Shown: positions 32,599-47,874 of the stretch, piece after piece
How positions within the stretch are numbered: the stretch's first letter is position 1
Layout: each line of letters opens with the position of its first letter
Assembly: GCA_036679645.1 (NCBI GenBank)
Contig: JAZDCY010000011.1
Span: 64,001-128,000 of the forward strand
From: Gemmatimonadota bacterium
Lineage (GTDB): Bacteria > Gemmatimonadota > Gemmatimonadetes > Gemmatimonadales > GWC2-71-9
Direction: 5' to 3'
Length of the DNA: 64,000 nt
The notes under the pieces: model-generated
Database searches by the model: none
What the model saw: only the letters and a program-made list of their open reading frames with translations
What the model was told of the DNA's origin: nothing
Translations under genes and position numbers: made by a program

Positions 32599-32671
<73 letters not shown>

Positions 32672-32936
32672 CTCTCTGAGCGCCGTTGTGACGGGGTTTT
32701 CGCGTTCCCTGCCCGCTGGACCAGATGTCGCGTGCGCCAATGCAGCCGGGTCCGCGACTCACGTCGCATGCCCGTTTCTTCCCACCTTCGCGGAGTGGGT
32801 CATGGCCTGTCCTTCCGCGTCAACCCCGGGTATGCTTCATAGCAGCACCAAACTTAGCGGGGACCTCTTTGCCCTCCGGCCAGCTCTGGCCGGAACGACG
32901 CCGGCGCCTCCTCTGAGCCACACTCTGAGGAGGGCC

Positions 32937-34136
32937 GTGTCCAGCATCCCGCTCTCGCGGCCGTATTACGCGTCTTTCGCCCATCGCCACCCAACCGCCA
33001 CCCAGGAATCAGCGCTCTCGGTACTGCCGCGAAGCGACAGTGAACGGGGACCGATCGCGACCGCCATCGTCTATTGCGAAGCGAACTTCGGCGCCCTCGA
33101 CGGGAAGACCGCCAACGGGCTCGTACGACATTCCGAGCTGTACGAGATCCTGTCGGTGATCGACAGCGAGAAAGCCGGGCTCGATGCGGGCACCGTGCTG
33201 GACGACGAGCCAAATGCCATCCCCATCCATCGCGACCTCGCCGAAGCCCTGGCCCACGTCGACGGGACACCCGACTACTTCATCTTCGGAATGGCACCGG
33301 CGAGTGGCATGTTATCGACCCACGAGCGCGGACTCGTACTCGAGGCCATGGCGCTCGGAATGAACATCGTGAACGGTCTGCATGAGTTCCTGAACGACGA
33401 CCCGGAGTTCGCGGCGGCAAGCGTCGCGTGCAACGTGCAGGTCTTCGACATCCGGAGGCCTCGCGCCAAGAAGGACCTGCGGATGTTCAGCGACCGCATC
33501 ACCGAGGTGACCTGCCCCCGCATCGCCGTGCTCGGTACCGACTGCGCTATCGGCAAGCGGACGACCGCGAACATCCTCACCCTCGCCCTCAACGAAAGCG
33601 GCGTGAAAGCGGTCCTGGTCGGAACCGGACAAACCGGGCTGATCCAGGGCGCGCGTTACGGCGTGGCACTCGATGCGGTCCCGTCGCAGTTCTGCTCGGG
33701 TGAGATGGAAGCCACCATCGTCGAAGCGTTCGAGGGCGAGAACCCCGACGTGATCGTCATCGAAGGGCAAGGCGCGTTGAGTCACCCGGCCTTCTCGACC
33801 TCGAGCCTCATCATCCGGGGTAGTCGCCCGCACGGCGTCATTCTGCAGCACGCGCCGGGGCGTGCCCATCGCTGCGACTTCCCGCAGATGGGGATGCCGA
33901 CGCCGGACACTGAGATCCATCTCATCGAGACCTTCGCCGAAACGAAGGTCATCGGTCTCACGCTCAACCACGAGAACATGACCGAGGCCGAGGTGACCGC
34001 GGCCATCGTTCGGTACGAGTACGAACTCGGCATCCCCACAACGGACGCGCTGACCCGGTCACCCGACCGCCTCGTGGATATGGTCGTGTCGATGTTCCCC
34101 GAGCTCGAGGAGAAACTGACCGCCGGCGCACGATGA
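32937..34136 (+). CDS. DUF1611 domain protein (DgcN-like N-acetyltransferase family); start uncertain
   Basis: GKTANGL, NGLHEFL, GTDCAIGKRTT, GTGQTG, IEGQGALSHP. Confidence 0.85.
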   Translation: MSSIPLSRPYYASFAHRHPTATQESALSVLPRSDSERGPIATAIVYCEANFGALDGKTANGLVRHSELYEILSVIDSEKAGLDAGTVLDDEPNAIPIHRDLAEALAHVDGTPDYFIFGMAPASGMLSTHERGLVLEAMALGMNIVNGLHEFLNDDPEFAAASVACNVQVFDIRRPRAKKDLRMFSDRITEVTCPRIAVLGTDCAIGKRTTANILTLALNESGVKAVLVGTGQTGLIQGARYGVALDAVPSQFCSGEMEATIVEAFEGENPDVIVIEGQGALSHPAFSTSSLIIRGSRPHGVILQHAPGRAHRCDFPQMGMPTPDTEIHLIETFAETKVIGLTLNHENMTEAEVTAAIVRYEYELGIPTTDALTRSPDRLVDMVVSMFPELEEKLTAGAR

Positions 34137-35218
34137 CCGCACCGCGACTCGAGATTTTCCTCGATAGGATCCACCACAACGCCTGCACGCTGATCGAACG
34201 GCTTGGGGCACGCGGCATCTCGGTCACGGGCGTCACGAAGGCGACCCTGGGCTCACCCGAGATCGCCAGCGTCTTGCTCCGGGCGGGGGTCAACGCGCTC
34301 GGCGACTCGCGCATCGAGAACATCGAGGCCATGCGCGGCGCGGGCGTCCCGGGACCAATGATCCTGATTCGCTCACCAATGCTCAGTCAAGCCGACAAGG
34401 TCGTCACCCACGCCGACGTGAGCTTCAACACGGAACCCGCCGTCATCCGCGCGCTCTCGTCCGCCGCGCAGGCGGCGGGGCGCACGCACGGCATCGTGCT
34501 CATGGTCGAGTTGGGAGACCTCCGCGAAGGGATCATGTCCGGTGACCTCGAGCACGTCGTGCGCGAGACGCTTCACCTCCCGAACATTGCGCTCGAGGGG
34601 ATCGGGACCAACCTCGCGTGCCACAGCGGCGTGGTGCCCGACAGCAGGAACATGGCGGAGCTGTCGGGGGTCGTCGATGCGATGGAGACGATCTTCGGTA
34701 TCACGATCGGCATCGTCTCCGGGGGGGGCTCCGCCAACCTCTCGTGGGCGCTCAGCGGCGCCGACACGGGGCGGATCAACGATCTCCGCCTGGGCGAATC
34801 GATTCTGCTCGGTTGCGACCCGCTCGACCGCGAACCGATCGAGGGACTGCACACCGATGCCATCATGCTCGTCGCCGAAGTGATCGAGTCGAAGGTCAAG
34901 CCGTCACGGCCGTGGGGCGACATCGCGCAAACCGCGTTTGGCGAACAGCCACGCGCCGCGGATCGCGGGTCCATCTCGCGGTCGATCCTCGCTGTTGGGC
35001 GCCAAGACACCGACGCTTCGGGCCTCAGGGCCCCTCCCGGCATCGAGATCCTCGGGACCAGCAGCGACCACCTCATCGTGGATACCGGCCGCCATCGCCT
35101 ATCGGTCGGCGCCGAGATGACGTTTCAGCTCAACTACAGCGCGCTGGTCCGCGCGATGACCTCGCCCTTCGTCGCGAAGATGGTTCTGAAGGCCGAGACC
35201 AGCCAGGTGCTGGTGTAG
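34133..35218 (+). CDS. Alanine/ornithine racemase-family PLP-dependent enzyme
   Basis: GVTK (PLP lysine), DSRIENI, MVELGDLREG, SGGGS, LRLGESILLG, SSDH; ATGA-coupled to DUF1611. Confidence 0.9.
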   Translation: MTAPRLEIFLDRIHHNACTLIERLGARGISVTGVTKATLGSPEIASVLLRAGVNALGDSRIENIEAMRGAGVPGPMILIRSPMLSQADKVVTHADVSFNTEPAVIRALSSAAQAAGRTHGIVLMVELGDLREGIMSGDLEHVVRETLHLPNIALEGIGTNLACHSGVVPDSRNMAELSGVVDAMETIFGITIGIVSGGGSANLSWALSGADTGRINDLRLGESILLGCDPLDREPIEGLHTDAIMLVAEVIESKVKPSRPWGDIAQTAFGEQPRAADRGSISRSILAVGRQDTDASGLRAPPGIEILGTSSDHLIVDTGRHRLSVGAEMTFQLNYSALVRAMTSPFVAKMVLKAETSQVLV

Positions 35219-35390: not shown

Positions 35391-35428
35391 GACTGTCCCG
35401 CAATTGTCCCGGTACGGAGCGTCACTGA
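35391..35428 (+). repeat. 38-bp direct repeat, copy 1 (copy 2 at 42231-42268)
   Basis: GACTGTCCCGCAATTGTCCCGGTACGGAGCGTCACTGA; 36/38 identical to copy 2. Confidence 0.9.
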
Positions 35429-35673
35429 ACGCCTGTCCAGGTGGGACCCTTGGCAAGTTGCTGGCATCCGTCGCTCATGTGTGTGAAATGTGTGTGAATG
35501 GGGATCACCCAGGGGTACTCTAGACGCGACGAGGCACTAGAACGGGCCTGTTTCTAGGTCGAGAGTGACCTAGCGTGTACTGGAGTTCAAGGCTTTACGT
35601 GGCCTACTGCCTCAATGATCCGCTGGGGATGGTCAACTCGCCCGGTGGCCTTTCGGCGTGGCTGGCGGAGGTA

Positions 35674-35829
35674 CTACAGGACTCCACGGATCTTCTTGAG
35701 ATGTGACCGGACGAAGGGCTCGCTCACCTCGAACTGCTCGCCAAGGGCGTAAGTGTCGGAGAGCGAGGACTTCCGGAGGATGGGGCGCGGCAAGAGCAGC
35801 CCACCCGCAAAGACGAACGCTTGCCACTC
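35674..35829 (-). pseudogene. ImmA/IrrE (DUF955) metallopeptidase C-terminal remnant
   Basis: EWQAFVFAGGLLLP...ALGEQFEVS motif; HExxH N-terminal half absent. Confidence 0.55.
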
Positions 35830-36017
35830 TACGCTGACCGCTCCACCGCCAGGGGGTCAATAGGCCGGTCGCACATCCGGCACTGGGCAACGCCCGCATA
35901 GACACGATCGCGAACGGGTTTCAGGCACTTGCACGTCCGACGCGGGTCAGGCCGCCGCGCTTCACGCATTAGCCGATCGACCTGGTTGAGTATCTTCTCG
36001 CTGGTGATTGGTTTCAT
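35829..36017 (-). CDS. Small Cys-rich hypothetical protein (CxC...CxxC)
   Basis: 62 aa MKPITSEKILNQVDRLMREARR...CKC...CRMC; AGGTG RBS-like. Confidence 0.45.
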   Translation of the reverse strand: MKPITSEKILNQVDRLMREARRPDPRRTCKCLKPVRDRVYAGVAQCRMCDRPIDPLAVERSA

Positions 36018-36105
36018 CCCCAACACCTAATCTAGGGGCTGTGCGGCGGAGGCACGGCACATCAACTGACCGACGGGACACCGTCGTGTCAGCGCGAGGG
36101 TGGGG

Positions 36106-36270
36106 GAGCACCGCCGCGAGTTCGGGGCGCAGCACCTTGACTGCCACCTTGCGCTTGTGCTTCAGGTCTTCGGCGAGATAGACGATCGCCATCCCGCCCG
36201 AACCGAGTTCACGCTCGATGGTGTAGCGGTCGGCGAGGGCGGTGGTGAGGCGATCAATGTCGTTGCTCAT
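36106..36270 (-). pseudogene. Ser/Thr kinase 5' stub (55 codons, MSNDIDRL type)
   Basis: MSNDIDRLTTALADRYTIERELGSGGMAIVYLAEDLKHKRKVAVKVLRPELAAVL, then similarity ends abruptly. Confidence 0.85.
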
Positions 36271-36312
36271 ACAATCGACGATTTGCGATTTGCGATCGAA
36301 CGGCTCATTACC

Positions 36313-36367
36313 TCCCACACGTCGCTTTAGCGACATCAGCCGCGCCGCGACTTTAGTCGCGACGACC
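36313..36367. repeat. Tandem-hairpin element, copy 1
   Basis: CCACAC-GTCGCTTTAGCGAC-ATCAGCCGCGC-CGCGACTTTAGTCGCG-ACGACC. Confidence 0.92.
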
Positions 36368-36425
36368 CCGTGGCAGTATCTCCATACTGGTTCCCCACCT
36401 TAACTACTAGCACTCCGGCGCCGGC

Positions 36426-39152
36426 TCAGGGCGCCGCCATCCGCCGCTTCAGTTCCTCGACAAAATTGAAGACCACGACGACGTGTACAGCGGCGTCACT
36501 CTCCCCGCGGATCATCACGAACTCTTGGCCGTCCGGGGTGATGTCGTATTCACGGGAAAACGGGTTCGAGGCGTATTGTGCGGCCGGGAAGAGCACACGT
36601 GGTGCGCCGGTCTGAAACGTCGTTCCGGCAGTGACCGGCACGGAGATCAGGTTGCTGGCGGCATCGAGGTAGAACAGCTCGCGCCCGTTGTGGCTCCAAG
36701 CCGGATTGATCCCCCCCGTAGTGGAGATTTGGTACTGCGCGCTGCCGGCGTCGGGGAATGGGCGAACGTACACTTCCCGCCGCCCCGACTCATTCGAACT
36801 GTATGCAATCCACCGCCCATCGAAAGACACCGCCGGCGAGAGCTCTTCGGCGGGCGTGGCGACGACTGCACGTGGCACGGTGTCCACTCCGGGCCTGATC
36901 GCCAGGATGTCCGCGTTGCCGGCCTCCTGATCGTCGGTCCGGAACACCATCCACGTCCCGTCCGGCGACCACGTGAGGCCACCGAGGCCGCGGTCATCGT
37001 AGAACTCGGTTTTGCTGAGGCTGCCCGACCCATCGGCCCTCACTTCGAACAGGTTCGAGCCCAGCGCGGCAGGGGTTTCTTCCCGATTGGAAAGGAACGT
37101 GATGGTGCCTGTACCGGGCCGCCAACTGGGGCGGTAGTTGGTACTCCCGTCGAACGTCAACCGCGACTTGGGGCTGCCGTCGAGCGATTCCACCCACAAA
37201 TGACTCCGGCCATCGACGCCGGCCATGCTGACCACGAGGTGCAGCCCGTCCGGCGAGAGCGTTGGCTGCTGCACCGTGAAGTCGCGGAGATCCGCCGCGA
37301 CGCGACGCGACTCCCCGTTCCGGTCCACCCACACGGCCTGAAATGACTGCACCACGCCCTTGGCGTAGGCGAGCGTGCCGTCAGGCGAGAGCGAAAAGTC
37401 CGCCGTTCCCCCCGCCGTCACCGCCACGGTGTCCGACAACTCCACCTCCCGACCGGACAGGCGCAGGGAACCTGCGTCGAATGGCGCCGCCCATAGCACC
37501 CCGTTCGCCTTCGCGAAGACGAGGTACCCGGCCGACGAATACTGGGCGCGTATTCCCTGTAACAGGATCTCGATCTTTCCGGTGCTCAAATCCACGACGC
37601 CGATCGATGCGCGCTCGGGATCGGTCGCGTTGCGGGCAGGAATCACCGTGAGAACCGCCGCACGCGCGCCGGGAAGCACCTCGGGCCACAGGTACCGGAG
37701 ATCGTCTCGCTCCGCGTCGAGCGTGGCGACCGTCTCCAGCGCCCCTCCACGTGGCGAGACACGGACGAGACCGGCGATCCCACTGACGTAAATCCAGCCA
37801 TCCGTTCCCCAATCCAGTCCGCCTCCGTCGTCCGTCACGGACGTGAGGCCGGAGTCGGCGACAATGGCGGACAGCCCGCCGCCGAGCGGCACTACGTGCA
37901 GCGTATGGGGCCCGGTGAGGTACGCGACCGAATCGCCACTGGGCGAAAACGCCGCGCAACAGCCTTCATCGAGCGACTGCGGTAGCCTGGTGGCCTGCAG
38001 TTGGTCCCATTGCCGAAGCCAGTATTGGGTCCTGGTGCCGACCCCCGGTCCGGAGTACAGCAGGCCGGCTCCGTCCGGCGCGAGGGTTAGGATAGGGCCG
38101 GGACCCGCCGTGTACCGCGGCCGCTGGTTGGCGAGCATATCCAGCATGAGTCGCATCGTTGGAGGCGGTGTGGTGTGTTCTCGCCAGGCCAGTTTCGTCG
38201 TCACGACGCCCAGGATGAGTGCCGCAACTGCGACAATGGCCACGGCGCGCAGCCCGAGTGCACGTAATGGCTGAATCGCGCCTCTTGCCTGGCTGACGGC
38301 GCGGGTGTCCGATGCGTATGACGGATTCGCAAGCGCGTCCGCAAAGGCTTTGGCACTCGCGAACCGATCCGCCGGTAGTTTCTCCAGCGCTTTCGCCACT
38401 GCTGCCGCCACGTGCGGCGACACCGATTTCCGCACCTTCGTGACGGGCTGTGCCTCCTCGGTTACGATCTTCATGATGATCTGCTGGGCCGACGAGCCCA
38501 CGTGCGGCGGGCTTCCCGCCAGCATCTCGTAGAGCACGCTACCCAGCGAATAGATGTCGGAGCGATTCGTGAGGTCCTTCTCCGCGGTCGCCTGCTCGGG
38601 ACTCATGTAGTGCGGCGTGCCGAGCGAGAGGCCCGTCTCGGTCATGCGTCCACCCGCTGCCGCGCTCACCGCCAACGCAATGCCGAAGTCCGCCACCATC
38701 GGACGGCCATCGTGGAGCAGGATATTCTCGGGCTTGATGTCCCGATGGATAACGTTGTTGCGATGTGCGTAGTCGAGCGCGTCAGCGATGTCGGTTGTGA
38801 TCTTCACCGCCTCATCGATGGAGAGTTGCGTTTCGCGGTTCAGCTTGTCGCGCAGGGTCTCGCCCTCGATGTACGGCATGACGTAGTACAGGAAGCCGTC
38901 CGTCTCTCCGGAATCGAACAGCGGCAGGATGTGCGGATGTTGGAGATTGGCGGTGGTCGTGATCTCCTGCAGGAAGCGTTCGGCACCGAGCACGGCTGCG
39001 AGTTCAGGGCGCAGTACTTTGACCGCGACCATGCGCTTGTGTTTGAGGTCTTCGGCGAGATAGACGGTCGCCATGCCACCCGCACCGAGTTCGCGTTCGA
39101 TCCGGTAACGGTCGGCGAGAGCAGTGGAGAGGCGATCTACGTCGTTGCTCAT
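36426..39152 (-). CDS. Ser/Thr kinase - TM - TolB/PD40 beta-propeller receptor
   Basis: HRDIKPEN, DFG, GTPHYMSPEQ; one TM; repeated (F/W)SPDG blades. Confidence 0.95.
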   Translation of the reverse strand: MSNDVDRLSTALADRYRIERELGAGGMATVYLAEDLKHKRMVAVKVLRPELAAVLGAERFLQEITTTANLQHPHILPLFDSGETDGFLYYVMPYIEGETLRDKLNRETQLSIDEAVKITTDIADALDYAHRNNVIHRDIKPENILLHDGRPMVADFGIALAVSAAAGGRMTETGLSLGTPHYMSPEQATAEKDLTNRSDIYSLGSVLYEMLAGSPPHVGSSAQQIIMKIVTEEAQPVTKVRKSVSPHVAAAVAKALEKLPADRFASAKAFADALANPSYASDTRAVSQARGAIQPLRALGLRAVAIVAVAALILGVVTTKLAWREHTTPPPTMRLMLDMLANQRPRYTAGPGPILTLAPDGAGLLYSGPGVGTRTQYWLRQWDQLQATRLPQSLDEGCCAAFSPSGDSVAYLTGPHTLHVVPLGGGLSAIVADSGLTSVTDDGGGLDWGTDGWIYVSGIAGLVRVSPRGGALETVATLDAERDDLRYLWPEVLPGARAAVLTVIPARNATDPERASIGVVDLSTGKIEILLQGIRAQYSSAGYLVFAKANGVLWAAPFDAGSLRLSGREVELSDTVAVTAGGTADFSLSPDGTLAYAKGVVQSFQAVWVDRNGESRRVAADLRDFTVQQPTLSPDGLHLVVSMAGVDGRSHLWVESLDGSPKSRLTFDGSTNYRPSWRPGTGTITFLSNREETPAALGSNLFEVRADGSGSLSKTEFYDDRGLGGLTWSPDGTWMVFRTDDQEAGNADILAIRPGVDTVPRAVVATPAEELSPAVSFDGRWIAYSSNESGRREVYVRPFPDAGSAQYQISTTGGINPAWSHNGRELFYLDAASNLISVPVTAGTTFQTGAPRVLFPAAQYASNPFSREYDITPDGQEFVMIRGESDAAVHVVVVFNFVEELKRRMAAP

Positions 39153-39187
39153 ACGATCGACGGTTGGCGATCGAACGACTCGTTACA

Positions 39188-39242
39188 TCCCACACGTCGC
39201 TTTAGCGACATCAGCCGAGCCGCGACTTTAGTCGCGACGACC
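39188..39242. repeat. Tandem-hairpin element, copy 2
   Basis: One mismatch versus copy 1 over 55 bp. Confidence 0.92.
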
Positions 39243-39328
39243 GTAGCCATACCACCCGCACCGAGTTCACCTTCGATTCGGTAGCTGTCGGCCAGTGCTA
39301 CGGTAAGGCGGTTGAGGTCGTCGGCCAT
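39239..39328 (-). pseudogene. Ser/Thr kinase 5' stub (30 codons, MADDLNRL type) interrupted by the hairpin element
   Basis: MADDLNRLTVALADSYRIEGELGAGGMATV|. Confidence 0.85.
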
Positions 39329-39507
39329 CGCGTTGGTATTCCCTGCAGAGAGAGGGCCAAAGATGGGCCTCAGTGGACGGGGTGGCTAGCTGGTGATTGT
39401 CGCGGAGTTGCTCCGGTGGGGCGACACTGAGCGGCGATGCTCGGCGGCATGAAGCCGTCTGCCGACGATAAATCGGCCGCCGGATGACAACGTTGCCCGC
39501 GAGACTC

Positions 39508-39566
39508 TTGACACCGCCTCCGCACCGGTATATTACCATACTAGCACACCAGTACACTAATACACT
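39508..39566 (+). promoter_or_regulatory. sigma70 promoter and probable GntR/YtrA operator
   Basis: TTGACA-17 bp-TATTAC, followed by repeated TAGCACAC/CAGTACAC/TAATACAC. Confidence 0.6.
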
Positions 39567-39580
39567 CTGCGAGGAGGCGT

Positions 39581-39991
39581 GTGCTGATCACTATCGATGA
39601 AACAGATCCGCGGCCGATCTACCAGCAGATCGCGGATGAGGTTCGGCGCGGGCTGGTGGTCGGGACCCTGCGTGCCGAGGATGCGTTGCCGTCGGTGCGG
39701 CAGTTGGCGGCAGAGCTGCGGGTGAATCCGAACACAGTGCAGCAGGCATATCGCGAACTGGAGCGGGAGGGACTGGTGCACGTTCGGCGCGGGAAGGGGA
39801 CATACGTGGCGGAGATGCGTGATGGTGGTAGGGCGCGGGAGCGGAGCACGCTGGCGCGGTCGGTGGCGCAGCGGGCGTTGCGGGAGGCCCACCGGAACGG
39901 GCTGAGTGCGGAGGAGTTGGTCGAGGCGATTCGGCGCGCTGCGAGTGGCGGCGCGCCGGCGGCAACGAGCGCGGAAGGAGCAAACGCATGA
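39581..39991 (+). CDS. GntR-family regulator (YtrA subfamily)
   Basis: PIYQQI, LPSVRQLA..VNPNTVQQAYRELE..RGKGTYV. Confidence 0.93.
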   Translation: MLITIDETDPRPIYQQIADEVRRGLVVGTLRAEDALPSVRQLAAELRVNPNTVQQAYRELEREGLVHVRRGKGTYVAEMRDGGRARERSTLARSVAQRALREAHRNGLSAEELVEAIRRAASGGAPAATSAEGANA

Positions 39992-40989
39992 TGGACAAGC
40001 TGCCGACGGAACTGACCACAACCGGTCCGCTGGCCGTGACGACGCGGTCGCTGGTGAAGCGGTTCGGCCGCACGACAGCGCTGGCGGGCTTGGACCTGGC
40101 GGTGCCGGAGGGTTCCGTCTACGTGCTGGTCGGGCGGAACGGGGTGGGGAAGACGACCACGATCAATGTGCTCCTGGACCTGGTGGTCGCGGATTCGGGC
40201 ACGGCGGAGGTGTTCGGATTGGACACGCGCGCCGAGGGGGCCCGCGTGCGTGCGCAGGTGGGGTATGTCCCGGAGCGGCACGAAGTGGCGTACGGCTGGA
40301 TGCGGGTGGGCGCGCTGATGCGCTACCATGCCGGCTACTATCCGGCGTGGGACGCGGCGTATGCCGACGAGTTGTCGCGACTGTTCGACATCCGCGCGGA
40401 CATCAAGTTCGGCAGGCTCTCGAAAGGCCAGAAGCGCCGAGTGCAACTGCTGCTCGCCCTCGCGCATCGGCCACCGCTGCTCGTGATGGACGAGCCAACC
40501 GACGGGCTCGACCCCGTGATGCGGGAGGAGGCGCTCTCGGCCCTCGCGGCTCATCTGGCGCGCTTCCCGACGACGATTCTGGTCTCGACCCATCAGGTGC
40601 ACGAGATAGAGCGACTGGGGGACCATCTCGGGCTCGTGCGCGCCGGTCGGATCGAGGCGCAATTCAGCCGCGACACGTTGCGCCGCTACCTGCACAGCTA
40701 CCGCCTCGAGGTACCGGACGGGTGGGCGGGCGTGTCGGCGATGGAGGATGTGGTGATCCGCCGGAACGGGTCGGGTCGAGAGATTGCGTGGACGATCTGG
40801 GGCAATGAGGCGGAGGTGACGGAGCGACTTGGGGGCGCGGGGGCAACGGTCCGGCAGGTCGAGCCGCTGACGTTGGAGGACGCGGCGTTGTCGCTCCTGA
40901 CACAGCGCGCGACGTCGAACGGGGCCGATGGGAGTGAGATACTTCAAACGATACCGGCCGGCGTCGGACCGGCGCATGGAGGAGAGTGA
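39988..40989 (+). CDS. ABC transporter ATP-binding protein (YtrB-like)
   Basis: GRNGVGKTT, LSKGQ, MDEPTDGLD. Confidence 0.93.
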   Translation: MMDKLPTELTTTGPLAVTTRSLVKRFGRTTALAGLDLAVPEGSVYVLVGRNGVGKTTTINVLLDLVVADSGTAEVFGLDTRAEGARVRAQVGYVPERHEVAYGWMRVGALMRYHAGYYPAWDAAYADELSRLFDIRADIKFGRLSKGQKRRVQLLLALAHRPPLLVMDEPTDGLDPVMREEALSALAAHLARFPTTILVSTHQVHEIERLGDHLGLVRAGRIEAQFSRDTLRRYLHSYRLEVPDGWAGVSAMEDVVIRRNGSGREIAWTIWGNEAEVTERLGGAGATVRQVEPLTLEDAALSLLTQRATSNGADGSEILQTIPAGVGPAHGGE

Positions 40990-41795
40990 GCATGCGTGCG
41001 AATGTTGCGGTGCGCGAGCTGCGGCCGACCCCCGGGATCGGGGTCTCGTTCCGCCAACAGGCGTGGCTCCTCGGTATGAGTGGCCGCTGGATCCTTCAGA
41101 TCCTGGGTCTTCTGGCGTTACTGATGCTGATCGGCTTGAGCGACGTCCCCCGCGAGGCGCCGCGGATCCTCATCACTTCGATGCTCGCAATACTGGGCGG
41201 CACGACCTGGGCCGTGATGGTGTGGCACGGAGAGGGGCCGGACCGCCGGTCGTATCACTGGTCGCTCCCGGTCCCGAGACCGGCCCATGACCTGGCCCGG
41301 GTGGCCCTGGGTGCGGCGTACCTGCTCGCCATCTGCGCGGTGCTGGCCGGCGCCGGCGCGATTGCGGCATCCGCGAACGGCACGTTCGATCGTTTCGCGG
41401 CGACCGCGCCGGAGGCGTGGGCGAACTTCTTCGTGGCGCCGCTGATCGTCTACCTGTTGGTGACACCCGTGGTGCTCTGGAGCGACTACCCTATCACCCG
41501 CTGGGTGTTCGCGATCTACTTAGGTGGGGGGCTGCTTGCCGCGATCCTCAGCTGGCAGGGGTTCGACCTGCTGGTAGAGGGCCTCGAAAAGATCTTCGAT
41601 GCAGAGAACTGGGGGCTCGCGGCCGCGCTGTTCGCCGGGATCCAGCATGAGGTGAGCGCGTCCATGGGGCTGCCCCCCCTCGTCGACCTGTGGTGGACCG
41701 GCGCGGTGCTGTGGTTCGGGCTGGGCCTCGCGCTCACGGTATTCACCGCGCTTTACCGACCGGACGATCTGCGACGATTGGTGCGCCGCGCGTAG
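40986..41795 (+). CDS. ABC-2-type permease-like membrane protein
   Basis: About 6-7 TM segments, YHWSLPV motif, operonic with the ATPase. Confidence 0.75.
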   Translation: MSMRANVAVRELRPTPGIGVSFRQQAWLLGMSGRWILQILGLLALLMLIGLSDVPREAPRILITSMLAILGGTTWAVMVWHGEGPDRRSYHWSLPVPRPAHDLARVALGAAYLLAICAVLAGAGAIAASANGTFDRFAATAPEAWANFFVAPLIVYLLVTPVVLWSDYPITRWVFAIYLGGGLLAAILSWQGFDLLVEGLEKIFDAENWGLAAALFAGIQHEVSASMGLPPLVDLWWTGAVLWFGLGLALTVFTALYRPDDLRRLVRRA

Positions 41796-41852
41796 GCAAG
41801 TTCTCCACCAGACCAGGTGCCACGAGTCGTTGAGGGCTCAGCCCCGCTCTGT

Positions 41853-42166
41853 CGGCGTAGCGACTCGCCCTCCACGAACGGCATCACGTAGTAGAGGAAT
41901 CCGTCGGCTTCGCCCGAGTCGTACAGGGGTAGGATGTGCGGATGGCTGAGCTGGGCCGCGATCTCGATCTCGCGAACGAACCGCTCCGAGCCGAGGGCCA
42001 CAGCCAACTCCTGCCGCAGCACCTTGACGGCCACCTTGCGGCGGTGCTTTACGTCCTCCGCCAGGTAGACGGTGGCCATCCCGCCGCGCCCGCTGCCGAC
42101 CTCACGCTCAATGGCGTAGCGGTCCGCGAGGGCTGTAGTGAGGCGATTCAGAGGGTCGTCGGCCAC
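41853..42166 (-). pseudogene. Ser/Thr kinase 5' stub (about 105 codons, MADDPLNRL type)
   Basis: Subdomains I-V only (to YVMPFVEGESLR); no HRD or DFG; 2-aa insertion in the Gly loop. Confidence 0.88.
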
Positions 42167-42230
42167 CGCTTGATACTCCTGCAGCGAGTGGGCCCAAGAT
42201 GGGTGACCCGGCGCCGCGTCGCTGGCGGGT

Positions 42231-42268
42231 GACTGCCCCGGAATTGTCCCGGTACGGAGCGTCACTGA
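42231..42268 (+). repeat. 38-bp direct repeat, copy 2
   Basis: GACTGCCCCGGAATTGTCCCGGTACGGAGCGTCACTGA. Confidence 0.9.
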
Positions 42269-42328
42269 GCGGTACGCAGCGTCACATCCTCCCGCCACCT
42301 GCACTTGGAAGTGTGGCGGCGTCTGTAA

Positions 42329-42721
42329 CTACTTGAGTCGCACGAGATGATCCCGAATCCACCGGGCGACGTCTCCCTCTGACGCCTCGCCCGCAGCAAC
42401 CGCGCTGACGATGGCGACTACCTCTGGCTCCTCGACGGCGAGGCCGTGGCCGTTCAAGCCGAGGAAGATCACGGTTGCGAGAAAGGCAATCCGCTTGTTG
42501 CCATCCCGAAAGGGATGGTTCTTCGCGAGCCCGTAGAGATAAGCCGATGCAAGAGAGGCAATGTCTGGTCGCCGCTTGTACGTCCATTTGTGCTGCGGCC
42601 GCGCGAGCGCGGACTCGAGGAGACCTTCATCGCGCAGGCCGGCCAGACCGCCGTGCTCGCGGATCTGGTCGAGATGCACGGCCTCGAGGACAAGGCGCGG
42701 CACCCAGCGCGGCTCTCTCAT
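42329..42721 (-). CDS. doc: Death-on-curing (Doc/Fic) toxin
   Basis: GLRDEGLLESALARP; HPFRDGNKR Doc-type motif. Confidence 0.93.
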   Translation of the reverse strand: MREPRWVPRLVLEAVHLDQIREHGGLAGLRDEGLLESALARPQHKWTYKRRPDIASLASAYLYGLAKNHPFRDGNKRIAFLATVIFLGLNGHGLAVEEPEVVAIVSAVAAGEASEGDVARWIRDHLVRLK

Positions 42722-42727
42722 GCGGCA

Positions 42728-42955
42728 CTATTGCGCCAGTTCGCGCAGCGCGTTCCGATAGCGCTTGGCGGCGTCCGCCGCGACCGCCAGGGCCTCCTGG
42801 GTGAGCGGATCGTAGGGCGTCAACAGGATGCCCTCCGCCGTCTCGACGGCGAGGAGGCTATCACCGGGCTCGAGGCGGAGCCGATCGGCCATGTCTTTGG
42901 GGAGGGTGGTACCGACCGAGCCGCCGACCCGTCGCACTTTGACTCGTTTGACCAT
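42728..42955 (-). CDS. AbrB/MazE-family antitoxin
   Basis: KVRRVGGSVGTTLPK; YRNALRELA; upstream AAGTA...TACTT imperfect palindrome at 42961-42982. Confidence 0.9.
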   Translation of the reverse strand: MVKRVKVRRVGGSVGTTLPKDMADRLRLEPGDSLLAVETAEGILLTPYDPLTQEALAVAADAAKRYRNALRELAQ

Positions 42956-43092
42956 GTCAAAAGTATAATATAAGTGCTACTTACAGACAACGACGTCTAG
43001 CCACAGCAAACGGCGGGAGCGGATCGAGTCCCTCGGCTGTTCGCGAAAGCATAGGCGGGAGTGCCGTTGCTGGTAGCCGGCGCACTGTCGCT

Positions 43093-46000
43093 TCAGCGCC
43101 CCCGCGCCAGCTCTTCTAGTGCCAGCCGCGCCGACGTGACCTGATCGCGCAGTTCCGGGTCGGGATTCGACCAGAGATCGAGGAATTGCCGGTAATACTC
43201 GATGGCCGCTTCCGTGTCACCGCGAGCCTCCGCCAGCTCGGCCAAGCGGCGCAACGCGAACGGCAACTGCACTCGCGCGAAGCCCCATGAACCCGACTCG
43301 GAGGTGAGGCTGGCGTGAACAGCCAACTCGAAGTGAGCAACAGCCGAGTCCGGCTCCGCGAGCTCATCGAACGCCAGCCCGTACATGAGATGAGCGTGCG
43401 TTAGCCATCCGTCTAGCACGTAGCCCAGGCCATCTATTTCGCGTAACGCCGCAACCGCACCGTCCGAATCACGTTGGGCCAACGACCGGGCGGCACGGGC
43501 CATTGCCTCAGCATATTGAACCGTCCACGGAGCTGCACCTGACGGCTCCGGATACGTCTCCCCGAACCGCTCCAGGAGGTCGGCATGTCCGAGCAGCCCA
43601 GCACCGACACCCAGGGTCGTCCGGTAGACCACCCGCTCGAATCCAGTGACGGAATCAGCCGCAAAGCGGTCGAGCGCGGCCTCGAGTCGCGCGCGCGCCG
43701 CCGTCGGCCGCCCCCTCATCTCCTCGGCCAGAGCGACGCCGAGCACCACGTTCGAATAGTCGAGGTACCGGCGCTGCTCGCCGTAGTACCGTCCCGCAGC
43801 CTCCATGCGACCGATGGCTTGGCTCACGCGGCCATGGGTAGCGGAAAGCGACCCGCAAAAGCTGCGGGCGTCGGCGAGGCCCGCGGGACTGCCGGCCTCC
43901 CCCAGCACCGAGTCACACAGCGCATCCGCTCGATCGTAGTCTCCCGACCCGACGGCGTAAGCGCGGGACCAACGTGCGGCTGGATCCGCGAATCCCCGTG
44001 CCCTGGCGGCGGCGATGAGGCTGTCGGCTGCAGCCCACCGTCCCAGGTCAATGGCCGTGTAGATCGCGTTGCTGTACCTCAATAGGCTATTGGGATCGAG
44101 GGTGAGAGCCTTTAGGTAGGTCACATACGCTCGCTCCGTCTCGCCCAGATAAATGATCGCAACGGCCAAGTTGTTTACCGCACGGGAATCGTCCGGGTAC
44201 TGGGCAAGGAGGGCATCGTACACGTCGACGGCACGGTGAATCTCGTACCGTTGATAGTGATAGGTGCCCTCGACATGCATCCGCTCCCGATCCGTCAAGC
44301 GATCGCGCCGCTCGTAGGCCCGCTGCGCGTACTCCCTACCCTGGGCGCGGCGTTCCGAATTGCCAAACGCCACGCCGGCAAGCCGATAAGCCATGGCGAA
44401 GCTGGTATCGAGGCGCGTCGCGGCCACGGCGAGTTCTGCCGCCCGGGGGTAGTCAGCGTCGATCTCCAGAGCTGCCTTCGCCAAGGCGTACCTGCGAAGC
44501 GCTTCCATTGATGTTGTGGTCACTTCAGGAAGCGGACGACTCTGCCGAATCGCAGCGGATGCCTCCCCCAACCGACTTCTCAGCTCGCGCGAAAGCGCCT
44601 CCACACCCTCCAGCAAGCGCTCGGCCCGGGCAGCCGTCCGCACCGCGATCAGCTCCCGGCCGGTACCCGGCTGGATGACGCGAGCGCTGAACACATAGTC
44701 ATCGCCCAGGCGCGCGACCGCCGGCACGAGCACCGCCGCCATCCCTTCCCGCTGCGCGATCTCCAACGCGACAGTCTCATCCAGCTTCGTGGTGTCGGGA
44801 AGCCCCATTCGCCGCAAGACGGGGACGATCTGGTTGCGGCCCCGGACATTGACGTACCGCGATTGCTGGAGATCAACGCTCAAGGCGGTTTGCGCGGCGA
44901 GAGCGATCTCTTTTTCGCTCTCCGGGGCAACGAACTCCGCCAAGACGATCCAAGCTCGCTCCCCGAATGCCTCGCCCGCCGACCCATGGGCCTCCGTCAC
45001 CCGCGCAGAGCCGCGCACCACGATGAGCGTGCTCATCATGCCCAGGACGGCGAACGCCAGCGCGCCGCCCATGATCGCCCGCGGCCAGGTCAGCTGCCGG
45101 ACGATCGGTTTCCCGGTTCGCTCCGGAGCGGGCCGCGGCTGGCGCGCCTCTTCGCGCACGAACGCGGTGGCCAGTACGACGGGAAAACCGAGCAGCAGCA
45201 ATATGAGCGCCGCCGCGTAGACCCACTCGGGCAGCAGGTAGCGCGCGACGATCTGGTCGGCAACCGCCAGCACAGCCCAGGAGGCGACCACGTAGATGGT
45301 GAGAGCGATCATCACGGCGCGTGCGCGGCTGCCGCGGAGCTTCACTGTTGTTGGGGTCGCTGTAGCCACAACCGCCGCCGACTCGCGCCTCGCCAACGCC
45401 TCAGCAAACTGTCCAACCGGGCTGAAGCGGTCCGCCGGCGTCTTCGCGAGCGCACGCGCCACTGCCGCAACTACGTCGGCGGGCACTGCAGGTCTCAGAT
45501 TCGTGATCGCGGGGGCCTCAACCGCCACGTGCTGCTGGATGACGCTCTCCACCGTCGGGCCCGTGAACGGCGGCTGCCCCGCGAGCATCTCGAAGAACAC
45601 GCAGCCCAGCGCGTAGAGATCGCTTCTGCCATCGAGGTCACCACTCCCCACCGCCTGCTCGGGACTCATGTAGCTCGGCGTCCCGATCGCGAGCCCGGTC
45701 TCTGTCAACCGGTCACCACCCGCGGCGCTGATCGCTCGCGCAATGCCAAAGTCCGCTACGACCGCGTGCCCGCTCTCCAGCAGGATATTCTCCGGCTTGA
45801 TGTCGCGATGCAGCACGTCGTGGCTGTGTGCGTAGGAAAGCGCGTCCGCGACTTCGCGTGCGATCTGCACCGCGTCGTCGATGGGGAGTTGCTTTTCACG
45901 ATCGAGCCGGTCTCGCAGTGTCTCGCCTTCCACGAACGGCATGACGTAGAACAGGAAACCGTCGGCCTCGCCCGAATCGAGCAACGGCAGGATGTGCGGG

Positions 46001-46215
46001 TGGGTGAGACGGGCGGTGATCTTGATCTCGCGCAGGAATCGTTCGGGGCCGAGCGCGTGGGCGAGATCGGGCTTCAGCACCTTGAGCGCGACGTGACGCT
46101 CGTGCTTCACGTCTTCGGCCAGGTAGACGGTGGCCATGCCGCCCGCACCGAGTTCGCGTTCGATCCGGTAACGGTCGGCGAGAGCAGTGGTGAGGCGATC
46201 GACGTCGTTGCTCAT
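43093..46215 (-). CDS. Ser/Thr kinase - 3TM - TolB-N-like - TPR receptor
   Basis: HRDIKPEN, DFG, GTPSYMSPEQ; TM bundle; TTTSMEALRRY; TPR helices. Confidence 0.95.
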   Translation of the reverse strand: MSNDVDRLTTALADRYRIERELGAGGMATVYLAEDVKHERHVALKVLKPDLAHALGPERFLREIKITARLTHPHILPLLDSGEADGFLFYVMPFVEGETLRDRLDREKQLPIDDAVQIAREVADALSYAHSHDVLHRDIKPENILLESGHAVVADFGIARAISAAGGDRLTETGLAIGTPSYMSPEQAVGSGDLDGRSDLYALGCVFFEMLAGQPPFTGPTVESVIQQHVAVEAPAITNLRPAVPADVVAAVARALAKTPADRFSPVGQFAEALARRESAAVVATATPTTVKLRGSRARAVMIALTIYVVASWAVLAVADQIVARYLLPEWVYAAALILLLLGFPVVLATAFVREEARQPRPAPERTGKPIVRQLTWPRAIMGGALAFAVLGMMSTLIVVRGSARVTEAHGSAGEAFGERAWIVLAEFVAPESEKEIALAAQTALSVDLQQSRYVNVRGRNQIVPVLRRMGLPDTTKLDETVALEIAQREGMAAVLVPAVARLGDDYVFSARVIQPGTGRELIAVRTAARAERLLEGVEALSRELRSRLGEASAAIRQSRPLPEVTTTSMEALRRYALAKAALEIDADYPRAAELAVAATRLDTSFAMAYRLAGVAFGNSERRAQGREYAQRAYERRDRLTDRERMHVEGTYHYQRYEIHRAVDVYDALLAQYPDDSRAVNNLAVAIIYLGETERAYVTYLKALTLDPNSLLRYSNAIYTAIDLGRWAAADSLIAAARARGFADPAARWSRAYAVGSGDYDRADALCDSVLGEAGSPAGLADARSFCGSLSATHGRVSQAIGRMEAAGRYYGEQRRYLDYSNVVLGVALAEEMRGRPTAARARLEAALDRFAADSVTGFERVVYRTTLGVGAGLLGHADLLERFGETYPEPSGAAPWTVQYAEAMARAARSLAQRDSDGAVAALREIDGLGYVLDGWLTHAHLMYGLAFDELAEPDSAVAHFELAVHASLTSESGSWGFARVQLPFALRRLAELAEARGDTEAAIEYYRQFLDLWSNPDPELRDQVTSARLALEELARGR

Positions 46216-46216
46216 A

Positions 46217-46256
46217 CCACACGTCGCTTTAGCGACATCAGCCGAGCCGCGACTTT
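46217..46256. repeat. Tandem-hairpin element, copy 3 (second hairpin cut at its loop)
   Basis: CCACACGTCGCTTTAGCGACATCAGCCGAGCCGCGACTTT, then kinase-stub sequence. Confidence 0.9.
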
Positions 46257-46306
46257 CGGTAGCGGTCGGCCAGTGCTGCGGTCAGGCGATTGAGGTCGTC
46301 GGCCAT
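46256..46306 (-). pseudogene. Ser/Thr kinase 5' stub (17 codons, MADDLNRL type)
   Basis: MADDLNRLTAALADRYR|. Confidence 0.8.
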
Positions 46307-46476
46307 CGCTGCGTATTCCCTGCTGCGAGTGGGCCTAACATGGGCGCCCCGGCTCCGCGTGGCTAGGCGGGCGACTGTCCCAACGAGCCGCAGCCTTCAG
46401 CGTCGGAGCCGCTTCTGGCACACCGGCTGCGCGGATTTGATCACGTCGCCAGGCCGAGCGTACGTTACGTTGGGAC

Positions 46477-46764
46477 ATGCCCGTGACCGCGAAGCTGTCC
46501 CGCGAATTCTACGACCGCTTTGGCGACAAGGTCGTCGACGAGCTGGTGGGGTTGCTCAACGACATGGACGCAACGTTCCGGGCCGAGTCGCGGGAATTGA
46601 ACGATCAGAACGTCCGGCGTTTCGAGGCCCGGCTCGAGCAGCACGCGGCAGAGTTGCGTGTGGAGCTGGCGGCGCTCAAGGCTGAGCTGATCAAGTGGAT
46701 GTTCCTGTTCTGGCTGGGCACGGTCGCCACCATGCTTGGGATCGGGCAGTTGCTGATCGGCTAA
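46477..46764 (+). CDS. DUF1640-like coiled-coil protein with C-terminal TM
   Basis: LKAELIKWMFLFWLG C-terminal signature. Confidence 0.75.
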   Translation: MPVTAKLSREFYDRFGDKVVDELVGLLNDMDATFRAESRELNDQNVRRFEARLEQHAAELRVELAALKAELIKWMFLFWLGTVATMLGIGQLLIG

Positions 46765-46827: not shown

Positions 46828-47220
46828 CTACCACCTAGAGACCGCTACGTCGGTCTGTGAGAAATCGTCACCTACGAAGAGTAGGGGCTCATCGCGGGCC
46901 ACCGACAGCGCATAGCTGAAGCAGTCTCCGAAATTCAACCCCGCCGGGTGTCGTCCGCGACCGAACCGCAAAGCTGCGTCGCGGGCGAGGTACGCCTGCT
47001 CCTCGCCGACGGGGACCACTTCGGCGCCGATTCCGCGCAGTAGGCGGTCGAGTTGCGGTTCGCCGGCCTCGCCAAAGCGTCCCAGGAGAACGAGTGCGGC
47101 CTCGACCACGGTCGCCGCCGACACGAGTCTGGTCGCGTCGGCTTCAACGGCCGCCACGAGCCGACCCGCAGTGGGCTCGCGAGTGAGGATCCCTATGAGG
47201 GCCGACGTGTCGATGACCAT
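46828..47220 (-). CDS. vapC: VapC PIN-domain toxin
   Basis: MVIDTSALI, LNFGDCFSYA, LLFVGDDF. Confidence 0.93.
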   Translation of the reverse strand: MVIDTSALIGILTREPTAGRLVAAVEADATRLVSAATVVEAALVLLGRFGEAGEPQLDRLLRGIGAEVVPVGEEQAYLARDAALRFGRGRHPAGLNFGDCFSYALSVARDEPLLFVGDDFSQTDVAVSRW

Positions 47221-47223
47221 GAG

Positions 47224-47475
47224 TCAGCGCGGGAGACCGTGGTCGTCGTAGTCGAGGATCTGCTCGGCGGATCGTGCATCCAGCACGGGAAGCCGAGCGA
47301 GTCGCTCCTGGACCCGCCGGATTTCGGCTCCGACGCGCCCGCGGGACAGCCGGGTTTCACGTTCGAGACGCTCGCGTAGTGCCATGCGAATCGCCTCAGT
47401 CAGCGATTCGCCGGTGGCTGCGGCGAGCGCTCGGGCGAGGCGGTCCGTCTCGGGGTCTTTGATGCTTAGTGCCAT
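47224..47475 (-). CDS. vapB: VapB antitoxin (Rv0623-like)
   Basis: [27 protein letters not shown]...YDDHGLP; AT-rich TCTAG/TCTAT repeat operator at 47477-47510. Confidence 0.9.
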
Positions 47476-47606
47476 TTCTAGTCTTCTATATGAATATCTA
47501 TAAATCTAGACTACTTGAGTACGGCGCGCAAGGAGGAGGGAACCAAGGAGGCAAGAGGGAACGTGTTCTCTCATGAGCGGTCACCCGCAGTGAACGGGTC
47601 TACCAA

Positions 47607-47874
47607 CCCATCGCGATCTGGTCACCCGACGGCAGCCGGCTGGCGGTCGTGGACTACGACTACCCGACGGACAGTTACGACTTGCAGCTGGTCACGTGGC
47701 CGGGGGGGGGGGGGGGAATGGCGTCAGCTCACGGAGACGCCAGACGCCATCGAGTTAGGCCCGGTCTGGACGCCGGACGGTACGCAGATTGTCTACACAT
47801 ACCAAACGACAACCGCCCGGATCATCTCCGTTTCGCTGGCGGAGCTGTTGGCGGAGACTGGAGACGAGGAATAG
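47607..47874 (+). pseudogene. TolB/PD40 beta-propeller C-terminal remnant, frameshifted at a G15 tract
   Basis: WSPDGSRLAVV...WPGG / EWRQLTETP...PVWTPDGTQIVY in two frames joined at G15 (47702-47716). Confidence 0.7.

Follow-up and report, generated by a model that had tools for sequence, protein, structure and literature searches.

We have analysed a stretch of 64,000 nucleotides (hereafter the window; G000:C4:64001-128000) of a Gemmatimonadota genome, G000, which has 4.05 Mb and is 92.7% complete. In it, a 15-kb island at a tRNA-Phe gene carries an array of receptor kinase genes and of kinase gene starts that lack the remainder of the gene (stubs). The island frames the locus and was absent from the original prediction, which had described a kinase-cassette shuffling system. 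The six minus-strand kinase starts which that prediction listed are all present (36270, 39152, 39328, 42166, the latter a GTG, 46215 and 46306), two of them opening full genes and four opening stubs. The kinase units and their leaders are as follows; X1 is a read run that may be the source sample, and runs X2-X4, with small shares, were left out.

36106-36270, minus strand: stub, 55 codons of homology, PD40-subfamily type, with leader A; junction bridged by X1 contigs
36271-36367, minus strand: leader A, with a hairpin pair (36367-36315) resembling repetitive extragenic palindromes (REP) and a heptamer-repeat remnant
36426-39152, minus strand: full Hanks kinase, 908 amino acids (aa), one transmembrane segment (TM), PD40 propeller
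39153-39242, minus strand: leader A with REP-like hairpin pair (39242-39190); bridged by X1 contigs
39239-39328, minus strand: stub, 30 codons
39329-39434, minus strand: element end E3 and leader B (degenerate)
41850-42166, minus strand: stub, ca. 101-104 codons, non-PD40 subfamily; junction bridged by X1 contigs
42167-42287, minus strand: element end E2 and leader B, best preserved copy
43093-46215, minus strand: full Hanks kinase, 1040 aa, 3-4 TM, TPR, chimeric (Pfam, head comparison)
46216-46256, minus strand: shortened leader A, hairpin pair cut in the outer loop (46256-46217); 46256 junction unconfirmed
46257-46306, minus strand: stub, 17 codons
46307-46381, minus strand: element end E1 remnant and leader B

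Kinase homology ends in the stubs at 36270, 39328, 42166 and 46306 after 55, 30, ca. 101-104 and 17 codons, as had been predicted, and their open reading frames (ORFs) run on past it to 102, 59, 137 and 22 codons, respectively. The 908-aa protein consists of Pkinase, one predicted TM and a PD40 propeller, and the 1040-aa protein of Pkinase, 3-4 hydrophobic segments and TPR. Both have the Gly-loop, VAxK, HRD, DFG and later kinase motifs, and by domain, motifs, TM and C-terminal repeat sensor their sequences classify them as Hanks-type Ser/Thr receptor kinases. Their C-termini are indeed unrelated (PD40 versus TPR type in Pfam), but the kinase domains are not closely similar, as had been thought. 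Over codons 1-35 they are identical at 34 of 35 aa and over codons 36-275 at only 148 of 240 (62%); at the DNA level, 99 of 105 nt are identical at the head and 501 of 720 thereafter. From codon 31 on, the nearest paralogues of each gene almost all share its sensor type. Since its head is nearly identical to that of the 908-aa gene and its body groups by its own sensor type, the 1040-aa gene is a chimera, with a crossover near codon 35 and a body from another subfamily. The pair shares only codons 1-35, so that the swap point is the head and not the border between kinase and sensor. An exchange of the sensor alone at that border is ruled out for this pair, the whole body being different from about codon 35.

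One explanation for the stubs would be that they are mis-joins of a short-read metagenome assembly confronted with ca. 100 similar paralogues. Separately assembled X1 contigs bridge the junction at 39242, one of two whose mapping had been proposed, and those near 36105, 36367 and 41850, four junctions in all. The second, at 46256, is unconfirmed, since the X1 contig that reaches 46255 stops there with 14 unaligned letters at main depth, possibly a mis-join or a strain variant, and assembly error is clearly more probable here than for the stubs overall. Nevertheless, the head at 46215 cannot be a copied repeat, having 6 mismatches to the 39152 copy in 105 bases and missing part of leader A. The joint of leader A and stub at 39242 has a 4-nt overlap, common to the 36367 copy; this joint may go back to the same origin as the other hairpin junction in the window, that at 46256, which would be a further-deleted form. 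It also speaks for mis-joining that neither full protein clusters with any other in the protein collection and that stubs are scarce in near-complete genomes from other families (0-2 in G019, G020 and G021). Against it, stubs join unique DNA, one junction is common to G000 and another genome, G001, and stubs are found in five genomes of two genera. As a general source of the stubs, mis-assembly seems to us very improbable.

Comparison between genomes confirmed the polymorphism that had been expected. In G002 the site is empty, with ca. 380 bp from a D-aminoacylase-like gene to the tRNA-Phe, whereas the window holds its 15-kb array. The G001 locus (L150) runs from an M28 peptidase through a duplicated tRNA half of 42 bp, a short region of direct repeats and leader B to a single intact TPR kinase of 804 aa and the tRNA, and the syntenic locus L159 has a PD40 kinase of 884 aa, stubs and cargo. 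L159 and L150 agree at 256 of 260 bases upstream, at 112 of 113 bases at the beginning of the coding sequence and thereafter at 496 of 712; the C-termini are unrelated and the switch, at about codon 37-39, is scarless. Here the body of a whole receptor has been exchanged behind a fixed upstream region and head. The idea that incoming kinases land in the 5' end of resident ones stands insofar as a new body lies behind the old upstream region and head, but the exchanged unit is nearly the whole gene and not the sensor. Neither is the displaced kinase left as a stub in such swaps, which when clean are stubless; the stubs likely come from separate illegitimate joins or, in some cases, internal deletions. 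The chain behind the L159 kinase consists of a 13-codon head joined to a TauD gene and a 27-codon head joined to an amidohydrolase leader. Among 88 genes from G000, G001, G002 and L159, 35 pairs have heads at least 86% identical, and 18 of these drop sharply in identity at codons 18-145, with the proviso that this selection of pairs favours early change points.

What had been presented as a single-locus system is in fact spread throughout the genome, and stubs are present in its relatives too. G000 has 121 kinase matches. The expanded family counts 56 full-length members there, and many of these stand in tandem arrays. We counted 34 stubs in G000, 17 in G001, 2 in G002, 22 in G184 and G218 and 1 in L159 (76 pooled). 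Matches at contig or locus ends (L121, L127, L061, L068 and the second match of L214) and a doubtful one (L206) were left out, L160 and L162/L202 duplicate DNA already counted, and two very short candidates found by eye (C8, C68) stand outside the counts. A scan for micro-stubs returned the known cases and one more. In 20 array regions of relatives, chosen by best kinase matches, there were only 2 true stubs and 2 inner fragments. With the genes of G000 masked, profiles of similar power found 28 orphan heads (independent E-value <0.01) and not a single PD40 tail; the TPR-tail profile is weaker and gives no fair control for orphan tails. The internal profile had 7 matches, all inside longer unmasked distant kinases, i.e., no true internal piece, and tblastn gave 31 heads versus one true internal fragment.

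The 34 stubs of G000 end at codons 17-147 (median 27), 28 of them at or before codon 60 and none at 148-275. The 76 pooled breakpoints (codons 16-147) fit an exponential decay (Kolmogorov-Smirnov p 0.74), even if the 60-residue query used for G001, G002, G184 and G218 biases the breakpoints of these genomes towards short stubs. Such a distribution indicates that there is no fixed crossover site, and the fixed position expected of site-specific insertion is not found. What follows a stub may be a kinase leader, a toxin-antitoxin (TA) pair (Phd-PIN, Phd-PemK, AbiEii-like), a Uma2 gene, a hydrolase, an island end or an integrase-like tail. Where the other flank of the partner is known, five joints have 2-5 nt of microhomology and the one at C24 has none; over the illegitimate joints, for only a minority of which the partner flank is known, microhomology is 4-5 nt in three cases and ≤2 nt in others.

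Some stubs deserve individual mention. A 56-codon stub is joined to a tyrosine-integrase-like end, with direct repeats and a tRNA-Leu, at L030:2235-2470 (G000) and L115:3710-3882 (G001); by its motif, the sequence after the stub looks like the last codons of a tyrosine integrase. At L126:2873-4900 (G002) a 41-codon stub continues without a frame change as a long ORF (676-aa open frame), part of which resembles a signal peptide. The same small gene follows a stub at L117 (G001) and L219 (G184), with different junctions.

It could also be that the stubs are hollowed-out pseudogenes. Tandem island kinases would decay by deletion, promoter and start being kept for the downstream genes; head homology would play no part in the making or spread of stubs, and the swaps would be unrelated ectopic recombination between paralogues. 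Remnants with both head and tail are found at G001 C23 (with a 4-nt overlap), G000 C63, L114 and L208, and in-frame internal deletions at C6 and C9. Furthermore, of the 34 stubs of G000, 19 have a tRNA gene or a partial copy of one no more than 10 kb away, as do 8 of 56 full genes and 17% of the genome, which would put the stubs in decaying islands, with the caveat that they are clustered and not independent. The next gene is co-oriented in 51 of 69 cases, as decay would have it, but opposite in 18 (7 more were uncalled, and the caller is crude), which is near what operon structure leads one to expect. On the other hand, two-ended erosion predicts tails too, when the count was 28 heads to none, and symmetric erosion is unsupported by these profile controls, though small tails exist at a few junctions. 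Deletion ends uniform over codons 16-275 would place 17% at or before codon 60, in contrast to 28 of 34 in G000, and an identical junction recurs with different heads. We consider decay by itself a rather unlikely explanation.

The reading that we prefer, with moderate confidence, is that the heads are a shared homology arm through which homologous recombination swaps bodies, while joins at short homologies and deletions leave stubs. The arm is likely the conserved first 35-150 codons of the ca. 100 kinase heads, and a dedicated recombinase is probably unnecessary. DNA coming from other cells, or from one of the ca. 100 paralogues, would pair with a resident head. Crossovers on both sides would then produce a clean, scarless body swap. 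A one-sided homologous join, or a deletion at 2-5 nt of microhomology, would instead remove the old body and set the head beside the leader of the following gene, a TA pair or an island end. This junction of head and cargo would still keep the homology arm and could be copied into other heads. Junction registers do recur behind different heads, as on C8 (three), on C75 (two) and in one case common to G000 C53 and G001 C35, and this is expected from copying through head homology.

A number of observations weigh against this reading. A single clean swap between genomes was found, and mosaicism occurs also farther along the kinase domain; in a linkage test, the rank correlation was low across the whole N-lobe (0.36-0.55) and not in the head alone. 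Of 53 stubs, at least 5 have a more distal kinase fragment behind them (one more was seen separately), something that plain deletion explains. The long stubs are mostly not the lost head of the next body, only about 2 of 16 stub-kinase pairs leaning that way, so that the simple insertion of a head with the body kept cannot be the general rule and the old body must mostly be lost rather than pushed downstream. The notion that each stub is the original head of the body after it is mostly unsupported for the same pairs. Nor does the reading account for the crowding of breakpoints in the first 60 codons, even though codons 136-220 are equally conserved. Finally, natural transformation of this organism is an assumption suggested by the presence of ComEC, which is weak evidence for uptake; ComEC was also present in 10 of 14 control genomes. 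A G-quadruplex hot spot in the Gly-loop codons was considered and discarded; the mean G4Hunter-type score has a local peak of 0.67, and the window of codons 21-30 ranks 25 of 68.

Should recombination through the heads be the right account, it would explain in a testable way how a lineage builds and renews a repertoire of ca. 100 receptor kinases, exchanging whole receptors behind fixed upstream regions, and the same handles may draw unrelated genes into expressed positions. More tentatively, the ca. 100 heads could form a dispersed, integrase-free cassette-capture system in which any DNA starting with a head, be it an entire receptor or a cassette of head and cargo, can take any expression site and stubs are kept as recombination handles of the cassettes. 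This we think possible but doubtful; if true, it would be an integron-like platform made up of the members of a signalling gene family, and it would carry receptors, TA pairs and secreted enzymes from one genus to another. For annotators, the lesson is that short ORFs with a kinase start in these genomes are mostly real scars. An actual integron-like cassette array was ruled out, there being no intact IntI above the TIGR02249 cut-off of 265 in G000 (attC sites were not modelled). G000 does have a split integron-integrase-like gene in two frames (C86:51824-52734, L008; 227.6 and 174.6 bits on TIGR02249), near a contig end.

Genes for surface proteins and polymorphic toxins are known to exchange their variable 3' parts by homology, and the orphan modules of Rhs and contact-dependent inhibition (CDI) systems are, with such C-terminal exchange, among the closest parallels. 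Minimal mobile elements, for their part, are small recombinase-free cassettes that carry alternative gene sets at one syntenic site and are exchanged by flanking homology. The kinase loci resemble the latter in being recombinase-free with alternative genes at a syntenic site. The difference is that minimal mobile elements are flanked by two different core genes, whereas the kinase arm is the head of a multicopy paralogue and the resident is destroyed or given a new body. In Neisseria, where such elements are mentioned, C-terminal exchange through a conserved stretch of the expressed gene has been proposed for the mafB and fhaB loci (PMC1797815). As described there, the likeness to the kinases is that a conserved stretch is the proposed homology and that the C-terminus differs between genomes at one locus. 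In contrast, the spare cassettes of that system are C-termini without a start, and the kinase leftovers are starts without the rest; the kinase swap also covers most of the catalytic domain and concerns signalling receptors, with no immunity gene. Downstream silent cassettes storing alternative C-termini are not what we find in G000, whose orphans are heads, not tails, and so the kinases do not belong with the mafB/fhaB/Rhs type.

Also comparable is homology-facilitated illegitimate recombination, with one homologous end and one illegitimate end with 3-10 bp of microhomology (PMC3240628). What the two have in common is one-sided homology, microhomology of a few bases and the coupling of insertion to deletion; unlike the kinase stubs, the process is known there from insertions and deletions of 1 kb on average in competent species. 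Taken alone, it does not predict breakpoints crowded at the gene start. In the open-access literature (titles and abstract starts) we found no published account of the exchange of 3' parts in a bacterial signalling family, of mirror-image 5' stubs, of the kinase expansion in Gemmatimonadota or of kinase cassette recombination.

The hairpin pair, which occurs three times in the window and folds into two short stems, had been proposed as the element joining stubs to full genes. It is a subtype of a dispersed REP-like repeat with a GCCGAG tag, a 7-bp stem and a TTCA/TTTA loop (47 matches versus 1-5 in shuffled sequences), and the tagged repeat reaches tens of copies in several genomes of the family. 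The suggested search for a trans-acting HUH/Y1 transposase succeeded in part. At C53, directly upstream of a kinase, inverted copies of the window subtype flank a Y1/HUH gene, an arrangement with inverted, dispersed tagged hairpins found also at C50, and tagged hairpins lie near 8 of 26 Y1 loci of G000 and relatives; stub formation, however, proved uncoupled from REP numbers. It is conceivable, then, that a site-specific enzyme makes the stubs, a Y1/HUH protein cutting the REP foot and joining it to heads, or tyrosine integrases using the head as a secondary attachment site. In accordance with this, a kinase start is found no more than 400 nt away at 13 of 27 repeat loci (2% in the background), so the repeat favours kinase leaders. 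Furthermore, 6 of 7 stub-REP joins fall within ca. 10 nt of the outer foot, the 6-base tag occurs on the antisense strand of the ELG codons, and one stub is joined exactly at a tRNA-Lys island end (C24).

An association of TnpA-REP with the prochlorosin (procA) family has led to a comparable proposal, the authors later finding no strong evidence of causation (10.1101/2020.03.09.984088). That family is likewise expanded, with a conserved 5' part and a variable 3' part, beside Y1 transposases and hairpins, but unlike the kinases it varies by small indels (same source), and as with the caveat on procA, the REP link is uncoupled from the kinase stubs. REP stand at 7 of the 34 G000 junctions, collapsing to ca. 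three registers (one of them cutting the hairpin loop), but at none of the other 27, nor at any of the 17 junctions of G001 or the 22 of G184 and G218. G001, with 17 stubs, has 4 pattern matches (control 2), and G002, with 2-4 stubs, has 58. Breakpoints have no fixed position and, by eye, no common dinucleotide. The hairpin as a site-specific joint is ruled out by these counts (7/34 in G000, 0/39 elsewhere), an enzymatic origin of the stubs is altogether improbable, and both the REP-like hairpin and the transposase of Y1 type probably travel in the leaders as passengers.

REPtrons consist of low-copy divergent Y1 genes with inverted tagged hairpins dispersed singly and as doublets (PMC6006769 and PMC8266576). 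The present Y1 genes are similar in their flanking by inverted, tagged and dispersed hairpins. They differ in that, where REPtrons have a GTAG/GTGG tag, a class-2 Y-x-x-x-NP motif and NF047646, here we find GCCGAG and a class-1 Y-x-x-x-Q, a pairing not in Table 1 of PMC6006769. The L003 protein scores 58.5 on the IS200/IS605 model NF033573 (cut-off 55) and 28.2 on the REP-associated NF047646 (cut-off 80). From these sequences, the GCCGAG repeat and its class-1-type Y1 protein may be an undescribed type of REPtron. The hairpin flanks short Y-x-x-x-Q Y1 genes at L003:1399-1920, L001:430-1270, L041, L043, L052 and L054.

The leaders have further peculiarities. Tandem heptamer repeats of several families fill kinase leaders in arrays (36271-36300 in the window; L020, L110, L159, L204, L212), and at three loci a leader of this kind meets stubs at codons 26-27. 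Two copies of a 141-nt leader (98.5% identical) precede different kinases at C24:27357-27497 and 33001-33141 (L029, G000), one copy directly after a tRNA-Lys and the other directly after a 67-codon stub. The stop of the 59-codon stub ORF overlaps the start codon of the 908-aa kinase (39149-39152), and a like overlap exists for the stub at 46306, between its stop and a mini-ORF of 8 codons (46215-46241); translational coupling to the leader-B start is possible. The sigma-70 scan gave a single site, at chance level, and the promoter role proposed for the leaders comes from a recurring CATCTT/TATCTT motif seen by eye.

The remaining features of the island are the tRNA, its cargo and the fourth element end.

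32599-32672, plus strand: tRNA-Phe(GAA), island anchor
32688-35218, plus strand: DUF1611 P-loop gene and alanine-racemase-like gene, cargo beside the tRNA; not at this site in G001 or G002
35391-35431, minus strand: element end E4, a repeat of 41 bp with homology to the G001 island end, no kinase start behind
35432-36105, minus strand: foreign DNA past the 55-codon stub, small ORF remnants, no Pfam match
39581-41795, plus strand: GntR regulator, ABC ATPase and permease-like gene, cargo on the opposite strand (Pfam)
42329-42955, minus strand: AbrB/MazE antitoxin and Doc/Fic toxin pair (Pfam)
46477-46764, plus strand: CCDC90-like small gene (27.7 bits, below the cut-off of 33.5)
46828-47475, minus strand: Rv0623-like antitoxin and PIN toxin, VapBC type (Pfam)
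47515-47874, plus strand: orphan PD40 fragment, long G run, far island edge (Pfam)

Islands of tyrosine integrases insert at tRNA genes and carry a duplicated tRNA half. As in these, a half of tRNA-Phe of 37-46 bp bounds the small islands in G001, L159 (42 bp at the far end in both) and 10 of 10 other loci of the family (chosen for having two tRNA-Phe matches), one of which contains a kinase, and tandem units are found. Unlike them, no integrase was recognised, and the window, with no detectable tRNA half, keeps four element-end homologues (46381, 42287, 39434 and 35431), three of which have a kinase start behind. The 42166 stub and its element end are the nearest match in the window to the G001 island end plus kinase start. 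Contig C4 has no match to a Y1 transposase or to a tyrosine integrase of its own (PF00589); serine recombinases and IS110 were not searched. By their motifs, the element-end repeats are presumably arm-type sites of an integrase. The 41-bp repeat also lies at L158:1-1016, in an unrelated metagenome contig, between a kinase-type leader at the contig end and a pair of helix-turn-helix and IrrE/ImmA-like genes, which fits an integrative origin. Among 300 family genomes, the full 261-nt end is found only in G001 and G184 (partially in G000); matches to the element end are present also in Gemmatimonadetes records. G184 belongs to another genus and its copy is 98% identical, which points to recent transfer between genera.

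The cargo predicted between the kinase units was recovered with Pfam (GntR/ABC, Fic/Doc with MazE/AbrB, PIN with an Rv0623-like gene), except that the gene labelled DUF1640 is CCDC90-like, below cut-off. TA pairs are common cargo, and homologues of the Rv0623-like/PIN pair sit between kinases in G013 and G021. The AbrB-Doc pair lies between the arms of an 8-bp inverted repeat (42988-42981 and 42328-42321), which could be due to chance; its left arm overlaps the sole sigma-70-like site. Elsewhere in G000, ARAGORN predicts tRNA-like genes of 86-96 nt with Ala or Val anticodons at C7:211519-211607, C11:12621-12709, C32:56781-56866, C59:8760-8848, C21:18149-18244 and C47:754-841. They may be akin to the long-arm allo-tRNAs of mobile DNA, and several lie within 200-320 bp of kinase stubs.

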